From positions 56,034 through 120,033 of the forward strand of contig JBAZRV010000003.1 of the NCBI GenBank assembly GCA_041662745.1: 64,000 nt of DNA, written 5' to 3'. Of the stretch, positions 1,925-64,000 are shown in pieces. Origin of the DNA: Patescibacteria group bacterium (GTDB lineage: Bacteria; Patescibacteriota; Patescibacteriia; 2-01-FULL-39-33). Under the pieces are notes generated by a model, which did no database searches, was not told the DNA's origin, and worked only from the letters and a program-made list of their open reading frames with translations. Position numbers and translations under genes: made by a program. Every line of letters starts with the position of its first letter. Position 1 is the first letter of the stretch.

Positions 1925-1953
1925 TTGACAAAATATTTAAGGTGTGATATAAT
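1925..1953 (+). promoter_or_regulatory. consensus sigma70 promoter: -35 TTGACA (1925-1930), 17-nt spacer, extended -10 TGaTATAAT (1945-1953)
   Basis: exact TTGACA-N17-TATAAT with TG at -15/-14 read directly from sequence; predicted TSS about 1960, upstream of a GC-rich structured region. Confidence 0.6.
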
Positions 1954-1959
1954 AGTTTA

Positions 1960-2910
1960 TTCAAGATGATGGTTGTGGATAACTGAACAAAATTCAATTA
2001 TTGACAATATCATCTTGTGGCAGTTTAAAAGCTGTTTTAAAAGAGTTCTTCGGAGCTCTTTGTCAGGGCGGCATACGGCTTATGTCGTGTGTCGCCCTTG
2101 ACAAAGGTTTCTGAAAAGCGATGGCTAATTCTTGTTGATGGCTGTTTTTTTGAGTGGACATAGTCCGAACAGTATCGGCGAGAACGGTTGCAACGCAGAA
2201 ATCCAGGGTTCTTGGGTGGTATCGGCTGAAGGTGCCAATCCGACTTCGGGTCGGTCGCAGCTAATGCTTAAATAAAAAAATCGACCGAAGGCCGATGCCC
2301 CCAAGAATCCGACCTAAGAATCAGAAATGCACTTTAACGGCTGACTTAATTACGGTCAGCCCTCCACTTAAGCTCAGGATAAATCATGATCTTAACGGGA
2401 GCTTGAACATTACTAAGCATTCATCTGCGGCAGTTTGTCGCCGCATCGATATGATTAAGGCGTATGCTTGTCCGCCTGATCAAGTCCAAAGCCAAAAGCC
2501 GAGGATTTTGGGAGGAGATTGAGCTGAAGAGGGGGCATGGTTTGAAATTATATATTTACCAATCGCCTTAATTCACTTCTTCAAGTCTTGATTATATCGA
2601 TGCGGTAGCAATGTTTGGCCGTCAAGCAGGCGGGCAAACGCGCGCCGCAAGCACTTTCTTTGAAAGAAGAATTTCCCCACCGTCGGGCCATTATCCCGCC
2701 GGATCGGTAGACTTCCTCCTTTCTCTGGGGAGGCGTCATGTAACCGCATGCGCCTCCCCCACACGCCTCAGACAGTATGGTTCGAGGGCGCATAATCAAA
2801 TCCTCACAAGGGAAGCTTGGTTTTACGCTTACGGCTTAAGTACTGTTTGAGGCGTGTGTTTTAAAACGGCATTTCATTCTACGAGCAATCTCGTGAAGGA
2901 GGGTCTGTCT
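1960..2910 (+). ncRNA. unclassified GC-rich highly structured RNA (long 5' leader of zinc-ribbon operon or independent ncRNA)
   Basis: no credible ORF with RBS over ~950 nt; GC visibly above flanks; many perfect hairpins (UUCG-loop hairpins at 2042-2059 and 2244-2258; 18-bp helix 2760-2777/2841-2858; long-range helix 2207-2225/2292-2310); mutually exclusive hairpins around 2715-2757. Confidence 0.35.
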
Positions 2911-3093
2911 ATGGTAATTCAATGTTGCGTTTGCTCCAAGGTGCGTTCGGCCGGTACTTGGGAAGTCCGGAGCATCCCTCCCGGGGAGCAGGTTTCCCAC
3001 GGCTATTGCCCAGAATGCGCCGAAAAAGTGTTTCAGGGCATAGAGCGGGAGTTGGCCGCGCGACAAAAGAAGGAGGAGACCGTCAATGGCTAA
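2911..3093 (+). CDS. small zinc-ribbon protein (60 aa), CxxC ... YCPxCAE
   Basis: ATG at 2911 preceded by AGGAGGG (2897-2903); Cys pairs CCVC and CPEC; stop overlaps start of paralog (ATGGCTAA). Confidence 0.6.
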   Translation: MVIQCCVCSKVRSAGTWEVRSIPPGEQVSHGYCPECAEKVFQGIERELAARQKKEETVNG

Positions 3094-3286
3094 AGGTAAG
3101 TGTCCGGCTTGCTTCAAAGTTGAAGTAGCGCCGGGACAATGGAAGAATGTCGCCTTGCCGGTCGGCGAGGAAACATTTCCCCAATATTGTCCAAAGTGTG
3201 CCGAACACAACGCTTATGTTCGGGGGAGCATCCTGGCATCCAAGAGGTTGGCGGATGCGGCCCTGGCCTCGGCGTCGGGCAAATAG
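3086..3286 (+). CDS. small zinc-ribbon protein paralog (66 aa), CPAC ... YCPKCAE
   Basis: RBS GAAGGAGGAG upstream; same Cys spacing and shared YCPxCAE motif with preceding ORF; translationally coupled. Confidence 0.6.
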   Translation: MAKGKCPACFKVEVAPGQWKNVALPVGEETFPQYCPKCAEHNAYVRGSILASKRLADAALASASGK

Positions 3287-3293
3287 TTCAATG

Positions 3294-3322
3294 AAGGAGG
3301 AGGCTGCGCGCTTCCTCCTTTA
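3294..3322 (+). terminator. hairpin aaggaggagg-ctgcgcg-cttcctcctt with short T tract
   Basis: 10-bp stem (1 mismatch) immediately after zinc-ribbon operon stop; weak U-run. Confidence 0.4.
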
Positions 3323-8935: not shown

Positions 8936-9244
8936 ATGCTTGTCACATCAAAAGACCTATTCTGGGTCGTGTTATCGTTTGTTATTCTCTTTGGCGGTAT
9001 TTGCACCAGCTTCGCTATTTTTTACTTCGCCATGATTCTACGCGACGGCTGGTACATCACCAAGGCCATCAGGCGCAAGGTGGAAGCGGTAGAAAAAGTC
9101 ATGACCGCTTTCAAGTCTAAAGTGGAAAACACCGCCAGCTATGTGCCGCCGTTAATTGACGGCGTGTCCAAATTGGTTGAAGCCATAGCCGAAAAGAAAA
9201 GATCTTCGGCCGCCAAAACCGGCAAAAAATCAAAAAGAAAGTAA
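8936..9244 (+). CDS. hypothetical small membrane protein (102 aa) with K-rich tail
   Basis: ORF with one N-terminal TM. Confidence 0.45.
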   Translation: MLVTSKDLFWVVLSFVILFGGICTSFAIFYFAMILRDGWYITKAIRRKVEAVEKVMTAFKSKVENTASYVPPLIDGVSKLVEAIAEKKRSSAAKTGKKSKRK

Positions 9245-41027: not shown

Positions 41028-41215
41028 GGTTTCTCCTTTGGCTTTTTGGCCGGTTGGCTGTCTGTAAACTTAATGTTTTTTAAATTTTAATGTGCTTGTC
41101 CGGTTATTCCAGAATATGAAATCTTAGCATATTTTAGATAAAATGTCAATATGTTGACATTTTGGCTAAAATCGGATATAATTAGGCATATTATCAATTA
41201 ACGTATTAAGCGTTT

Positions 41216-59826: not shown

Positions 59827-60288
59827 TTAGCGTTTAGACCATTGCGGGGCGCGACGGGCGCGTTTCAAGCCCGGCTTCTTTCTTTCCTTGACTCTGGGAT
59901 CGCGAGTCATCAGCCCCTCGGCCTTCATGGCCGGTCGCAATTCAGGATTTAGCTGTTCCAGGGCTCGGGCAATGCCATGACGGCAAGCCGCGGCTTGGCC
60001 GTTTTTGCCGCCGCCAACCACATGAATGGAGACGGTGGTATTCTTATCGTGATCAGTCAGAACTAACGGCTTTAAGACAATATCTTGCAGATCTTTAGTG
60101 GGAAAATAAACCTTATAATCAAGATCATTGACTATGATTTCTCCTTTGCCCTTCAGGTATAAGCGGACATTGGCAGATGAGGTTTTTCGGCCGCCTCGGC
60201 CATAAAAAAACTTGCCTTCCGGTTTGACAATCTCGACTTCTTTGATTTCTTTCTTTTTGGTAACCATAATATATTCTTGCGAAAACAA
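59827..60288 (-). CDS. rpsI: 30S ribosomal protein S9 (N-terminal extension; may start at internal Met)
   Basis: ...GGGKNGQAAACRHGIARAL...KKPGLKRARRAPQWSKR. Confidence 0.9.
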   Translation of the reverse strand: MFSQEYIMVTKKKEIKEVEIVKPEGKFFYGRGGRKTSSANVRLYLKGKGEIIVNDLDYKVYFPTKDLQDIVLKPLVLTDHDKNTTVSIHVVGGGKNGQAAACRHGIARALEQLNPELRPAMKAEGLMTRDPRVKERKKPGLKRARRAPQWSKR

Positions 60289-60648
60289 TTAGTTAGTGGT
60301 TTTCAACCGCTTAATCATCTGATCGCGCAGTTTATTTTTAGGCAACATGCCCCAAACGGCTCGTCTGAGGACCTCGCCGGCATTGTCTTTCATGACCACG
60401 CTGGTTTTTTTGATTTTTAATCCGCCCGGATGGGTAGTGTGCCATTTGTATTCTTTTTGTTCCAGTTTCTTGCCGGTTAGTTTGAGCTTGGAACAGTTAG
60501 CGACCTCTACAAAATCTCCGGCATCAATATTGGGCGTAAAAGTGGCTTTATTTTTGCCACGTAAAATAATGGCGATACGCGTGGCTAAACGTCCGACCGG
60601 TTGGCCAGTAGCATCAAGCTGATGGGTTTTTCTTTCTATTTCTTTCAT
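60289..60648 (-). CDS. rplM: 50S ribosomal protein L13
   Basis: ATRIAIILRGK...; immediately upstream of rpsI. Confidence 0.9.
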   Translation of the reverse strand: MKEIERKTHQLDATGQPVGRLATRIAIILRGKNKATFTPNIDAGDFVEVANCSKLKLTGKKLEQKEYKWHTTHPGGLKIKKTSVVMKDNAGEVLRRAVWGMLPKNKLRDQMIKRLKTTN

Positions 60649-60661
60649 AAAATAAATTTAA

Positions 60662-61012
60662 TTAAATAAACTCAATGATAGCCACTTCCGCTCCGTCATT
60701 GACGCGTGGAGCTAATTTGACGATTCTGGTGTAGCCGCCTTTGCGATCTTTGTATTTCGGACCCAAAACTTCAAACAGTTTTTTGACCGCGCCTTGGGTG
60801 TAAAGCACCTTCAGGGCTTCACGGCGATTATGCAAAGTGTCGTTCTTGGCCAAGGTGATCAATTTTTCCACTTTGGGACGGGTTACCTGAGCTTTGGCCT
60901 TGGTGGTTTTGATTTTTTCGTAGACCACAAGAGAAGTAACCAAGCTGCGCAATAACGCTTCCCTTGGCGCCTTTTCACGACCCAATACTTTTCCTTTTCT
61001 GTTATGTCTCAT
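60662..61012 (-). CDS. rplQ: 50S ribosomal protein L17
   Basis: MRHNRKGKVLGREKAPREALLRSL. Confidence 0.92.
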   Translation of the reverse strand: MRHNRKGKVLGREKAPREALLRSLVTSLVVYEKIKTTKAKAQVTRPKVEKLITLAKNDTLHNRREALKVLYTQGAVKKLFEVLGPKYKDRKGGYTRIVKLAPRVNDGAEVAIIEFI

Positions 61013-61106
61013 AATATGTTAGTCATAAAGTCTAAAGCCGAAGGTCTGGAAAGTTTAAAGAAAATCATTTAAACTCCGGGCTTGCGGTTTTTTGACTCAG
61101 TTCTGT

Positions 61107-61973
61107 TTATTCTTCAATCTTTTTGGGGCGGCCGCGCTTTTTGGGCTTAGGCTCTTCCGTTGATTCTTCCCCAGCCCCTTCGGCGACTTCCGCGTTCTCT
61201 TCCAAAACTTCCTCAACCTTTTCTTCAGCGGCGACTTCCGGCAGGATTATCGGCGCCTCAATATCAATTTCTTCTATTTCCCTGGTGCCGCCTTCCATAA
61301 TCCAGCTAAACTGGTTGGTCAGGATTTCCGCCGCTTTTTTAACGGCATCTTCCGGGGAGATGGTGCCATCGGTTTCAACAGTTAAGATTAATTTATCATA
61401 ATCGGTGCGTTGACCGACGCGAGTCGCCTCTACCTCTAAGCCGACATTGATAACCGGCGTAAAAATAGAATCAGTCAAAATCGTGCCGATCTCGCCCTTG
61501 CCTTTATTCTGATCTTCCACCGGAACATAACCGATGCCTTTGGCTACGGTCAATTCCATTTCTATTTCGGCGTTTTCTGCGCTCAAGGAAGTGATGACGG
61601 CGTCTTTATTGACTACCTCGGCATCAACTGACTGCTGGATATCGGCGCCGGTAACTTTCTTTTTGCCTTCAGCTTTAAGTTGCAAGGTAACCGGTTCGTC
61701 GGAGTAAACCTTAAATCTTAAGGTTTTCAAATTAAGGATGATTTCCAAGACGTCTTCCGGCACATTCTCCATGGCTGAACATTCGTGCTTGACGCCTTTG
61801 ATTTTAACGGCAGTAACAGCGCCACCCGGCAGAGACGACAGTATGATGCGTCTTAGGGCGTTTCCTAATGTCAGGCCATAACCGGGAAAGCAGGGCTCAA
61901 TTACAATTTGAGCTGATTTGCCCGGAACCGATTCTTCAACAATGAATTTTTTAGGCAAAGGAATGTGTTTCAT
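61107..61973 (-). CDS. rpoA: DNA-directed RNA polymerase alpha subunit, NTD only, acidic linker ending in AT-hook (KKRGRPKK); alpha-CTD absent
   Basis: alpha-NTD fully recognisable (~228 aa); last 60 aa E-rich then PKPKKRGRPKKIEE; no helix-hairpin-helix CTD; 288 aa vs ~330. Confidence 0.88.
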   Translation of the reverse strand: MKHIPLPKKFIVEESVPGKSAQIVIEPCFPGYGLTLGNALRRIILSSLPGGAVTAVKIKGVKHECSAMENVPEDVLEIILNLKTLRFKVYSDEPVTLQLKAEGKKKVTGADIQQSVDAEVVNKDAVITSLSAENAEIEMELTVAKGIGYVPVEDQNKGKGEIGTILTDSIFTPVINVGLEVEATRVGQRTDYDKLILTVETDGTISPEDAVKKAAEILTNQFSWIMEGGTREIEEIDIEAPIILPEVAAEEKVEEVLEENAEVAEGAGEESTEEPKPKKRGRPKKIEE

Positions 61974-62043
61974 AATATTTCCTCCTTGGCTGCCGGAACT
62001 TTAGCGCCGACAGCCTGTTAACTTAAAATAATTAAATTATTTA

Positions 62044-62682
62044 TTATTTGCTGTAGTACTCAACAATAGTTCGCCAATCAATATTAACGGCGATATCTCC
62101 TAATTTGGGCTGGCTGGTCACTTTTCCTTCAATCTTATCCGAGTCAATCGTCAGCCAGGCAGGAATGTTTGTCAGTTTGCTCAGTTTTTGTTTGATTTCT
62201 TTATAGCCGGAGCTTTTTAATATCTTGTCGGACAAAGCGATGACATCGCCGGTTTTGACTTGGTAAGAAGGAATGTTGACTTTTTCGCCGTTAACCCTGA
62301 CATTGCCATGGCCGACCAACTGGCGGGCGGCGCGGCGGGAAGCGGCAAAACCCAAACGATAAACCGTATTATCCAAGCGTCCTTCCAAAAATCTAAACAG
62401 CCATTCGCCGGTATTGCCGACTTTGCTCAAAGACTTTTTAAAGTAAATTAAGAATTGCGCTTCATAAATGCCATACATGCGCTTGGCTTTTTGTTTTTCT
62501 GCCAATTGCTTGCCGAAATTGGTTTTTTTACCAACACGTTGCAACGGGCCGTGCATGCCGGGAGGAAAATTGCGTTTAACCATCGGGCATTTGGCAGAGT
62601 TGCATTTTTCGCCTTTCAAAAATAATTTTTCACCGGCGCGGCGGCAAGATTTGCATTGAAGATTTCTAGTAAAGTTAGACAT
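62044..62682 (-). CDS. rpsD: 30S ribosomal protein S4
   Basis: Zn-binding CKSCRRAGEKLFLKGEKCNSAKCP; S4 domain. Confidence 0.92.
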   Translation of the reverse strand: MSNFTRNLQCKSCRRAGEKLFLKGEKCNSAKCPMVKRNFPPGMHGPLQRVGKKTNFGKQLAEKQKAKRMYGIYEAQFLIYFKKSLSKVGNTGEWLFRFLEGRLDNTVYRLGFAASRRAARQLVGHGNVRVNGEKVNIPSYQVKTGDVIALSDKILKSSGYKEIKQKLSKLTNIPAWLTIDSDKIEGKVTSQPKLGDIAVNIDWRTIVEYYSK

Positions 62683-62709
62683 AAGGGATTAAGAATAGAA
62701 AAATAAAAA

Positions 62710-63186
62710 TTAAACGCGGCGCGGTCTGGGAGCGCGGCAGCCATTGTGAGGAATCGGGGTAATGTCTTTGATGCTGGAAACGATAAAACCATTGGCATTA
62801 ATGGCGCGGACAGCTGATTCGCGGCCGCCGCCGATGCCACGGACAAATACCGAGACTTCCTTTAAACCGTATTTTTTGACTTTTTCCGCAGCCGTTCTGA
62901 CAATAATCGTCGCGGCATAAGGAGTGGCCTTTTTGGGCCCCTTGAAACCGCATTGGCCGGCTGAACACCAGGACAACACATTGCCGTTTTGATCAGTGAA
63001 AGTGACAATGGTGTTGTTGTAGGTGGACTTAACGTAAGCCCGGCCGCTGGCTACCTGGCGGGCAGCGACGGTTTTTTTGACTTTCTTTTTCGACTTGTCG
63101 GCCGGTTTGGCGGCTTCGGCTTCAGCGTTAGCTTCTGCCGGAGCGGTCATAATGGTCGGTTCGTTTGTCAACAATTCTTCAGACAT
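62710..63186 (-). CDS. rpsK: 30S ribosomal protein S11 (A/E/K-rich N-terminal extension)
   Basis: ...[26 protein letters not shown]... Confidence 0.92.
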
Positions 63187-63216
63187 AATTATATTGGTAT
63201 TTGACTATTATATTGA

Positions 63217-63612
63217 TTAAGTTTTTTGGCTGGTGTCTTTTCTGCCCGAACCCATGGTTTTTCTAACATTGCCTCGCACGGTGCGGTTATTGGTTTTGGT
63301 GCGTTGGCCGCGAGCCGGCAAACCTTTCATGTGGCGGATTCCGCGATAAGACTTGATTTCTTTCAGGCGTTTGATATTGCTCATGACTTCTCGGCGCAAA
63401 TCGCCTTCAATGTTAAAACCGCCTTTTTCCACGGCCGTTCTTAAGGCGATCACCTGTTCTTCGGTCAAATCATTGACTCTGGTATCGGGATTGATTTTAA
63501 CGCCGGCCAAAATTTTATTGGCGCGCGGCTTACCGACGCCAAAAATATAAGTTAAAGCGATTTCTACTCTTTTATTGTTGGGGATAACGACTCCCGCGAT
63601 TCTAACTGCCAT
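63217..63612 (-). CDS. rpsM: 30S ribosomal protein S13
   Basis: [27 protein letters not shown]. Confidence 0.92.
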
Positions 63613-63632: not shown

Positions 63633-63749
63633 TTATTACCCTTGGCGTTGTTTATGCTTGGGATTTTTGCAAATAACAACCAGACGCTTTTTGCGCCTGA
63701 TGACTTGGCAATCCTTGCAAATTTTTTTAACTGAAGCTCTAACTTTCAT
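63633..63749 (-). CDS. rpmJ: 50S ribosomal protein L36
   Basis: hand translation [37 protein letters not shown] (38 aa, not in ORF track because <60 aa). Confidence 0.8.
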
Positions 63750-63845
63750 AAAGATAAAAATTGAGAAATAAGAAATTAAGGTAGGCAAAACTCACTCTTG
63801 GCTTTTAGCCATTAGCTGTATGCTATGTGCCATAAGCTACTGTGT

Positions 63846-64000
63846 TAATAACGATAAGTGATGCGTCCGCGAGTCAGGTCATAGGGCGTCATTTGGACTT
63901 TGACTTTGTCTCCGGGCAACAGGCGGATGTTAAACATTCGCATCTTGCCGGATAAATGAGCCAAAATCTCATGGCCATTCATTAACCGGACGCGGAAGTT
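63846..64000 (-). CDS. infA: translation initiation factor IF-1 (3' portion; 5' end beyond window)
   Basis: hand translation ...[32 protein letters not shown]. Confidence 0.8.

Follow-up and report, generated by a model that had tools for sequence, protein, structure and literature searches.

In bacterial RNA polymerase (RNAP), the alpha subunit's C-terminal domain (alpha-CTD) is the textbook hub of transcription initiation, being both the reader of UP elements and the contact point for many activators. RNAP has two alpha subunits, with their N-terminal domains (alpha-NTDs) on the upstream face of the enzyme, and E. coli RNAP deprived of the alpha-CTD, reportedly still active in basal transcription in the 1991 work of Igarashi and Ishihama, is blind to UP elements and to class I activators. 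A 2025 comparative study describes the alpha-CTD as ubiquitous across Bacteria (PMC12531629), and in full-text literature searches neither a naturally CTD-less bacterial RpoA nor an RpoA with an AT-hook was found to have been described. We describe here an rpoA gene in a 64,000-nucleotide stretch from a Patescibacteria group bacterium (contig JBAZRV010000003.1, positions 56,034 to 120,033; the whole stretch is referred to below as the window, and its numbering is used throughout). Its product, encoded at 61107-61973 on the minus strand, is 288 residues long, retains a complete alpha-NTD, lacks the folded helix-hairpin-helix alpha-CTD, and ends in an acidic linker followed by a single AT-hook.

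AT-hooks lodge an RGR segment in the minor groove at A/T tracts, and WhiB7, an Fe-S transcription factor of Actinobacteria, is bound to sigma-A region 4. In the structure of an RNAP-promoter complex, an AT-rich motif has its minor groove occupied by the C-terminal AT-hook of WhiB7 (PMC10243135). An AT-hook is able there, as it may be here, to supply an upstream promoter contact; WhiB7 is regulatory and promoter-specific, whereas the hook of the window protein is a constitutive part of core RNAP. The CarD protein of Myxococcus, which binds RNAP beta, has RGRP hooks that come after an unfolded acidic segment (PMC4374960), and a 2010 paper named CarD and its Stigmatella orthologue as the only prokaryotic proteins with an HMGA-like domain then known (PMC2919716). 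The window protein shares with M. xanthus CarD the unfolded acidic segment and the RGRP sequence placed on the RNAP machinery. However, CarD, an accessory factor that has four hooks, attaches to RNAP non-covalently by means of a CarD_CdnL_TRCF domain, whereas the window protein, from a different phylum, has a single hook in core alpha itself, and thus two per enzyme. Judged against the HMGA-like or CarD-type pattern, the unfolded acidic segment next to a hook is present and the multiple (3–4) hooks are absent, and bivalency could arise only through the alpha dimer. Eukaryotic HMGA1, the founder of the AT-hook family (PF02178), likewise has RGRP flanked by K/R, intrinsic disorder and an adjoining acidic stretch, but has three hooks and a C-terminal acidic tail, and is a free chromatin protein without a polymerase domain. 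Archaeal Rpo3/RpoD and eukaryotic Rpb3/AC40, which are homologues of alpha, are made up solely of the dimerisation and insert domains and have no CTD, but they have no AT-hook tail, and the window protein is bacterial-type by sequence. The window RpoA resembles CarD and WhiB7 in its probable mode of action, and is a member of neither family.

With the canonical RpoA of E. coli and B. subtilis the window protein shares an orthologous NTD (45–50% identity to the alphas in the PDB, E ~1e-53 to 1e-56), the operon position, a flexible tether from about residue 230, and a presumed target in the A/T-rich minor groove upstream of the -35 element. It differs in having a highly acidic linker of ~45–50 residues as against ~14 in E. 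coli, and it offers class I activators no surface, the 261, 265 and 287 determinants being absent. Its DNA-binding unit would be a disordered motif of 8–11 residues rather than a helix-hairpin-helix.

An alpha subunit without its C-terminal domain

The window protein is an RpoA orthologue with an atypical architecture in which the C-terminal module is replaced. The NTD, comprising the dimerisation and insert domains, occupies codons 1–228 (61290..61973, minus strand), and a Pfam scan reports PF01000 at residues 56–172 (E 2e-28), PF01193 at residues 26–222 (E 4e-24), and nothing else. The TIGR02027 model is passed at 247.1 bits (cut-off 227.8), the scores against most other NCBIfam RpoA equivalog models are below their cut-offs, and in the NCBIfam RpoA profiles, which have 298–338 positions, the alignment ends at profile position ~218–238, corresponding to residue ~237 of the protein. 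RpoA chains in the PDB cover residues ~4–256 at best, which is the NTD and the beginning of the linker (E 5e-56), and archaeal profiles reach only E 5e-10, far under cut-off. An AlphaFold2 (AF2) model built from a 67-sequence alignment is confident over the NTD, with predicted local distance difference test (pLDDT) scores mostly above 85 to about residue 230. The original prediction, drawn from the sequence alone, had held that the alpha-NTD is complete, and Pfam, TIGR02027, the PDB alignment and AF2 all agree with it.

The same prediction had the alpha-CTD missing, and this is what we observe. The alpha-CTD family PF03118 gives no match to the window RpoA even at E<=1, and when all 64 kb of the window were searched in six frames with the CTDs of E. 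coli and B. subtilis as queries, none was found (best E 0.27). A hidden Markov model (HMM) of the CTD, built from 87 CTD-bearing RpoAs, was run both on the window and on the DNA ±10 kb around rpoA in 20 related genomes, and no match was found in either (best E 0.17). The model is effective, as it located the CTD inside rpoA at all seven CTD-bearing loci used as positive controls (E 1e-18 to 1e-24). Downstream of rpoA there is only a 94-nt spacer (61013..61106, minus strand) with no coding capacity for a CTD, and since 94 nt is too short for a domain of ~70 residues, a CTD cannot lie there. The frameshift or hidden CTD between 61012 and 61107, or a separate CTD open reading frame (ORF) nearby, either of which would have undone the original claim, was thus looked for and none was found. 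Compared with a canonical RpoA, the NTD families and the operon position are present and the helix-hairpin-helix family PF03118 is absent.

The possibility that a normal CTD is hidden by a frameshift, by misassembly or by a gene call that stops short can be virtually dismissed. We reject it because the six-frame and HMM searches are negative with the controls found, because rplQ begins within 2–108 nt of the rpoA stop in 20 genomes with a CTD in no frame, and because the same architecture of 247–319 residues is present in 120 of 120 independent homologues, with a C-terminal motif under purifying selection. A different proposal is that rpoA is split, with the CTD or some other helix-hairpin-helix protein encoded elsewhere in the genome and the tail serving as a docking peptide. 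The DNA searched is about 388 kb of Buchananbacteria-type sequence (the window and the 20 loci), while the genome itself is ~1 Mb, a coverage that leaves room for this proposal and weighs against our own account, and a conserved EE[IV]D[IL]EAP segment and the acidic linker could be protein-binding elements. Nonetheless, no CTD-like sequence occurs in any frame of those 388 kb, single NTD-plus-tail proteins make up all of the closest 120 homologues and 119 out of 120 more distant relatives in a further search, and the tip is a recognised DNA-binding motif and no known protein-docking motif, and we regard a split gene as quite improbable.

The acidic linker and the terminal AT-hook

The C-terminal end of the window RpoA reads EESTEEPKPKKRGRPKKIEE, followed by the stop codon, and the tail has the layout GTREIEEIDIEAPIILPEVAAEEKVEEVLEENAEVAEGAGEESTEE-PKPKKRGRPKK-IEE. 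As originally proposed, an acidic linker of about 45 residues precedes an AT-hook containing RGRP. The linker spans codons 229–274 (61152..61289, minus strand), and its 46 residues include 18 D/E and two K/R for a net charge of -16. The AT-hook PKPKKRGRPKK corresponds to codons 275–285 (61119..61151, minus strand), with the RGRP core at residues 280–283 (61125-61136) and basic residues on both sides (KK-RGRP-KK), and K/R account for seven of the last 14 residues of the protein. Codons 286–288 (IEE) and the TAA stop at 61107-61109, read off the sequence, complete the gene (61107..61118, minus strand). The AT_hook family PF02178 goes unreported in the full-length scan, but it is the sole family matched when the tail is scanned alone, scoring 18.1 bits on a 25-residue peptide (cut-off 17.4) and 15.9 bits on the 60-residue tail.

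The first ~15 residues of the linker, GTREIEEIDIEAPII (residues 229–243; 61245-61289), form a segment that is conserved in the clade, with the consensus EE[IV]D[IL]EAP[VI] and at least 90% conservation of E239 and P241; the remaining linker has no consensus. AF2 confidence in this segment is intermediate (block means 68 and 47), and it could be a docking element. Beyond it the pLDDT is below 50 over residues 246–275 and 285–288 and averages just under 50 between them, the model contains no secondary structure in the tail, and the tail is predicted to be intrinsically disordered.

RGRP occurs once in RpoA and only once among six-frame ORF fragments of at least 60 residues in the window. A chance match is excluded, since the motif is unique among window ORFs and 110 of the 120 closest homologues keep it. 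AT-hooks as a habit of the whole proteome were considered and rejected, as within the window RGRP is found in RpoA only and a comparable acidic stretch in no other protein. Separately, we note a 102-residue ORF at 8936-9244 (plus strand) with a Lys/Arg-rich end, AIAEKKRSSAAKTGKKSKRK, which, ribosomal protein S9 apart, is the one further protein of the window whose terminus is strongly basic.

The arrangement of NTD, acidic linker and AT-hook is conserved under purifying selection in the clade to which the window belongs. The 120 closest homologues, drawn from four independent sources (NCBI, JGI, ENA and Logan assemblies), are 247–319 residues long, and 120 of 120 have only PF01000 and PF01193 and no PF03118. 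The pattern [KR][KR]RGRP[KR]K is found within the last 25 residues in 110 of them, and the ten exceptions have either KKKRAKK-type patches or acidic ends only. KKRGRPKK is nearly invariant across homologues that are 60–100% identical, whereas the linker between the NTD and the hook, at 41–67 residues (median 50) and a net charge of -10 to -25, is not conserved in sequence; beyond the hook the ends are short, variable and often acidic. In 17 genomes the residues R, G, R and P are invariant and yet are encoded by five, three, six and four different codons, respectively, which indicates that purifying selection acts on the RGRP peptide and not on the DNA.

These data bear on the suggestion that the tail has no function and is merely what remained of the former alpha linker when the CTD was deleted in a streamlined genome. 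The reduced genomes of Patescibacteria, the poor conservation of the linker sequence and the acidic-only ends of a few relatives all fit such a remnant. However, KKRGRPKK is nearly invariant in spite of synonymous codon turnover, the length and negative charge of the linker are maintained though its sequence drifts, and the acidic-then-basic design recurs in other CTD-less lineages. The conservation data lead us to reject a remnant, which we consider very improbable.

In one-genome-per-species GTDB contigs the matches are metagenome-assembled genomes (MAGs) of Candidatus Buchananbacteria or of Patescibacteria group bacterium at 63–93% identity, and one close homologue carries the name Falkowbacteria. 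We conclude that the ORF at 61107-61973 is a genuine rpoA, and the only one, of a Patescibacterium of the Buchananbacteria type. Nine third-party annotation (TPA) records named 'uncultured Gammaproteobacteria bacterium' (L002, L006, L007, L010, L012, L013, L015, L017 and L020) have Buchananbacteria-type rpoA loci at 63–71% identity, and by their sequences the Gammaproteobacteria labels look wrong, as does the label Candidatus Binatia on P0380.

Distribution within Patescibacteria and the surrounding locus

The survey of RpoA C-termini that the original prediction had recommended shows that absence of the CTD, seen in 120 of 120 close homologues, extends more widely than that prediction had recognised. 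An exhaustive HMMER search with the NTD only was made against 1.84 billion representatives at 50% identity, and the best 150 were classified; 86 have a CTD and 64 do not. After removal of fragments and frameshifted junk, about 26 of the CTD-less representatives have Lys-rich ends, KKRGRPKK is present in P0129, P0131, P0170 and P0239, and the others are acidic. A second search used a profile of 32 CTD-less representatives against a set of 5.8 billion proteins, and among the top 120 matches, 119 lack PF03118; the few organism names among these 120 include Candidatus Uhrbacteria, Candidatus Parcubacteria and Patescibacteria group bacterium. Among the 119 tails examined, the end is an RGRP hook in 33, a K/R patch (e.g. 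KKAKKAAKKKK) in 81 and neither of these in five, with a median linker charge of -9 and a median charge of +6 in the last 15 residues. The architecture, conservation and breadth of the CTD-less RpoA are solid. Because sister lineages have a Lys-rich patch, the conserved design is that of an NTD, an acidic spacer and a basic tip, and not the AT-hook itself. The alternation of hook and K patch mirrors what is described for the CarD proteins of M. xanthus and Anaeromyxobacter, the latter H1-like, where the HMGA-like domain can be replaced by a histone-H1-like domain without loss of function (PMC2919716).

Other Patescibacteria retain the CTD, including a Moraniibacteriota MAG (L021, 339 residues) and P0135 and P0158, and the loss is therefore lineage-specific within the group. 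In a rough neighbour-joining tree of NTDs, most CTD-less sequences and the window protein are in one large cluster, with the CTD-bearing P0158 nested inside it and some K-rich-tailed sequences scattered among CTD-bearing Patescibacteria, and the tree is too rough to choose between one CTD loss and several. The taxonomic boundary of the loss is likewise coarse, as names are available for six of 30 clusters and are mostly 'Patescibacteria group bacterium'.

Some unusual forms were encountered in these searches. The CTD-less P0151 (332 residues) has, as judged by eye, two apparent repeats after the NTD, and the repeat at residues ~260–293 has sub-threshold matches of the SAP/HeH type, namely SAP_new25 (E 8e-5), Ish1 and Rho_N; this tail may be a third kind of CTD replacement. 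P0121 (569 residues), P0122 (526 residues) and P0148 (664 residues) each have two tandem alpha-NTDs and a CTD match, with two PF03118 stretches in P0148, and represent either alpha dimers joined covalently or chimeras produced in assembly.

The rpoA gene itself is complete, beginning with ATG and preceded at a distance of 7 nt by the Shine-Dalgarno sequence AAGGAGG (61981..61987, minus strand), as read off the sequence. It is flanked upstream by rpsD (62044-62682), rpsK (62710-63186) and rpsM (63217-63612), all on the minus strand (62044..63612) and taken from the ORF list, with names assigned from operon position and a reading of the translations rather than from a family search. Downstream lies rplQ, encoding L17 (60662..61012, minus strand), which starts with an ATG at 61012 and whose translation begins MRHNRKGKVLGREKAPREALL. 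The order rpsM-rpsK-rpsD-rpoA-rplQ is that of the canonical alpha operon, and rplQ is the next gene after rpoA in 20 of 20 related loci, where rpoA closes with a tail of the same type and rplQ starts 2–108 nt past the rpoA stop. As named from their translations, probable rplM (L13) and rpsI (S9) genes follow directly after rplQ on the same strand (59827-60648, minus strand) and extend the alpha operon, and on its upstream side the series goes on with rpmJ and infA at 63636-63982. A regulatory RNA in the 94-nt rpoA-rplQ spacer was considered and ruled out, as the spacer folds no better than its shuffles (z = -0.94).

A proposed contact with upstream promoter DNA

We suggest that the tail probably contacts A/T-rich DNA upstream of promoters, and does so more simply than the CTD. 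With two alpha subunits in each RNAP there would be two flexible tethers per polymerase, and the tethered hooks could dock in the A/T-rich minor groove just upstream of the -35 element and stabilise promoter complexes, a low-specificity anchoring akin to that at UP elements. The acidic spacer would hold the tether off the DNA, curb non-specific sticking and set the reach (with a contour of roughly 150–180 Å), and it might also bend back over the hook and act there as an autoinhibitory or competitor element, in the manner of the acidic tails of HMGA and HMGB. The activator-docking role of the CTD in class I activation would be lost and not replaced, and because an AT-hook cannot serve as a docking surface for activators, the substitution for the CTD would be only partial. 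This account as a whole, in which the CTD has been lost and a tethered acidic spacer and AT-hook contact the DNA upstream, is the one towards which we lean, with a confidence slightly better than even.

The promoters themselves offer one source of evidence. The organism clearly uses sigma70-type consensus promoters, as the first 20 kb of the window contain 67 consensus matches against 44 ± 6 in shuffles, with intergenic 12-of-12 matches included. In the window and the 20 related loci (about 388 kb) there are 89 intergenic promoter-like sites, 81 of them non-redundant, and in these 81 predicted promoters the A/T content is 77% at -43..-37 versus 66–68% at -75..-44 (paired Wilcoxon p = 3e-5). 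Runs of at least six A/T bases (W>=6) occur in the 30 nt upstream of the -35 element at 85% of sites versus 67% of random intergenic windows, and the patch is missing from 144 promoter-like matches within coding sequence (0.65 vs 0.64, p = 0.18). The original prediction had suggested looking for A/T-rich, UP-like tracts, and only this short patch is seen; over an A/T profile from -135 to +15 the predicted promoters have no extended UP-like tracts at -60..-40. A strong UP-element signature is thus not seen, and the patch that is present is equal in hook-bearing and hook-less genomes. Promoters of rRNA genes would be the best test case for UP elements, but the window contains no rRNA genes and one tRNA only.

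Other features of the promoter-like sequences are recorded here in their own right. In the window and in L001–L020, the spacers of intergenic sigma70-like sites are 87% A/T at -30..-26 and -20..-16, versus 61–72% in coding-sequence matches. At 41121-41182 there are divergent back-to-back consensus promoters, 12/12 on the plus strand and 10/12 on the minus strand, with -35 hexamers that together make up an inverted repeat, TGTCAAcataTTGACA. At 1925-1953 (plus strand) lies a promoter that is a perfect TTGACA-17-TATAAT and has an extended -10 TG, and it is followed by about 900 nt (1960-2860) with no ORF of at least 80 residues and no Rfam match. The predicted fold of this segment has an energy of -378.8 kcal/mol versus -272 ± 7 for shuffles (z = -14.8), with -306 on the opposite strand (z = -7.2). 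Beyond it are tandem paralogous small zinc-ribbon ORFs (2854-3093 and 3086-3286) and then a strong terminator at 3292-3322, and the region from 1925 to 3322 on the plus strand is a candidate for a large structured non-coding RNA or leader.

Contact between the tail and DNA is supported by the A/T patch, by the WhiB7 and CarD precedents, and by the strict conservation of the motif. There are several considerations that weigh against it. We infer DNA binding by the RpoA tail from its motif alone, and a single AT-hook is a weak DNA binder. P0110, P0114, P0116 and P0118 have an acidic tail only with no basic tip, and since these few close relatives end in this way the tip can be dispensed with. 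The enrichment in A/T at -43..-37 is modest, it was measured at consensus predictions and not at mapped transcription start sites, four hook-less genomes share it (0.80 vs 0.71, n = 16), and a proximal A/T patch, corresponding to the proximal UP subsite, is also normal in CTD-bearing bacteria. With hook-less bacteria seen and CTD-bearing ones expected to have the patch, it does not discriminate between the readings, and we regard it as consistent with hook-DNA contact and weakly supportive of it, but not decisive.

What such a patch cannot separate from promoter contact is a more general role, and we rank as the main alternative that the basic tip is a generic tether to nucleoid or RNA, a polyanion binder serving in nucleoid association, facilitated search, clustering, or attachment to nascent RNA and ribosomes, with any reading of A/T sequence incidental. 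The plain Lys patches of sister lineages (KKKRAKK, KKAKKAAKKKK) at the position where RGRP sits, the same -43..-37 patch in hook-less genomes, and the strong segregation of charges in a disordered tail (a block-polyampholyte) are all what a generic tether would predict. However, the exact RGRP is invariant in 17 Buchananbacteria-clade genomes despite heavy synonymous change, and because this exact core is invariant a stereospecific contact is indicated rather than charge alone, the known contact of this kind being minor-groove insertion. Moreover, with the alpha-NTD on the upstream face of RNAP the nearest polyanion is the upstream promoter DNA. We consider a generic tether unlikely on balance, while giving it more weight than any of the other alternatives discussed above, and we prefer promoter contact by the acidic spacer and hook.

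The original proposal that the AT-hook is a minimalist substitute for the CTD therefore stands in part. It is plausible for contact with A/T-rich DNA, but the docking of activators is not replaceable by a hook, and the hook itself is not the conserved property, with Lys-rich tips in sister lineages and an A/T patch that is present without a hook too.

The existence of these proteins implies that the CTD is dispensable in nature, with a whole uncultivated lineage living without an alpha-CTD. Class I-type activation is probably absent from this lineage, which fits with small regulatory repertoires. The CTD-less RpoAs constitute a natural experiment on the share of the CTD role that is plain tethered binding to A/T-rich DNA, and they carry over to a core RNAP subunit what CarD shows for an accessory factor, the interchangeability of HMGA-like with H1-like tails. 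Annotation and marker-gene pipelines built around PF03118 or scores for a full-length RpoA will rate such proteins too low. A broader proposition, which we offer tentatively and with somewhat less than even confidence, is that a large Patescibacteria radiation, including at least Buchananbacteria-, Falkowbacteria- and Uhrbacteria-type lineages, has swapped the alpha-CTD for a disordered, eukaryote-style tail resembling those of HMGA and H1, in which an acidic spacer and an AT-hook or Lys patch, present twice in each enzyme, would make the contact with upstream DNA. If this is true, these bacteria would have no alpha-CTD-dependent class I activation, and the strength of their promoters would be set through a tether, minor-groove or electrostatic in nature, that belongs to the core enzyme itself.

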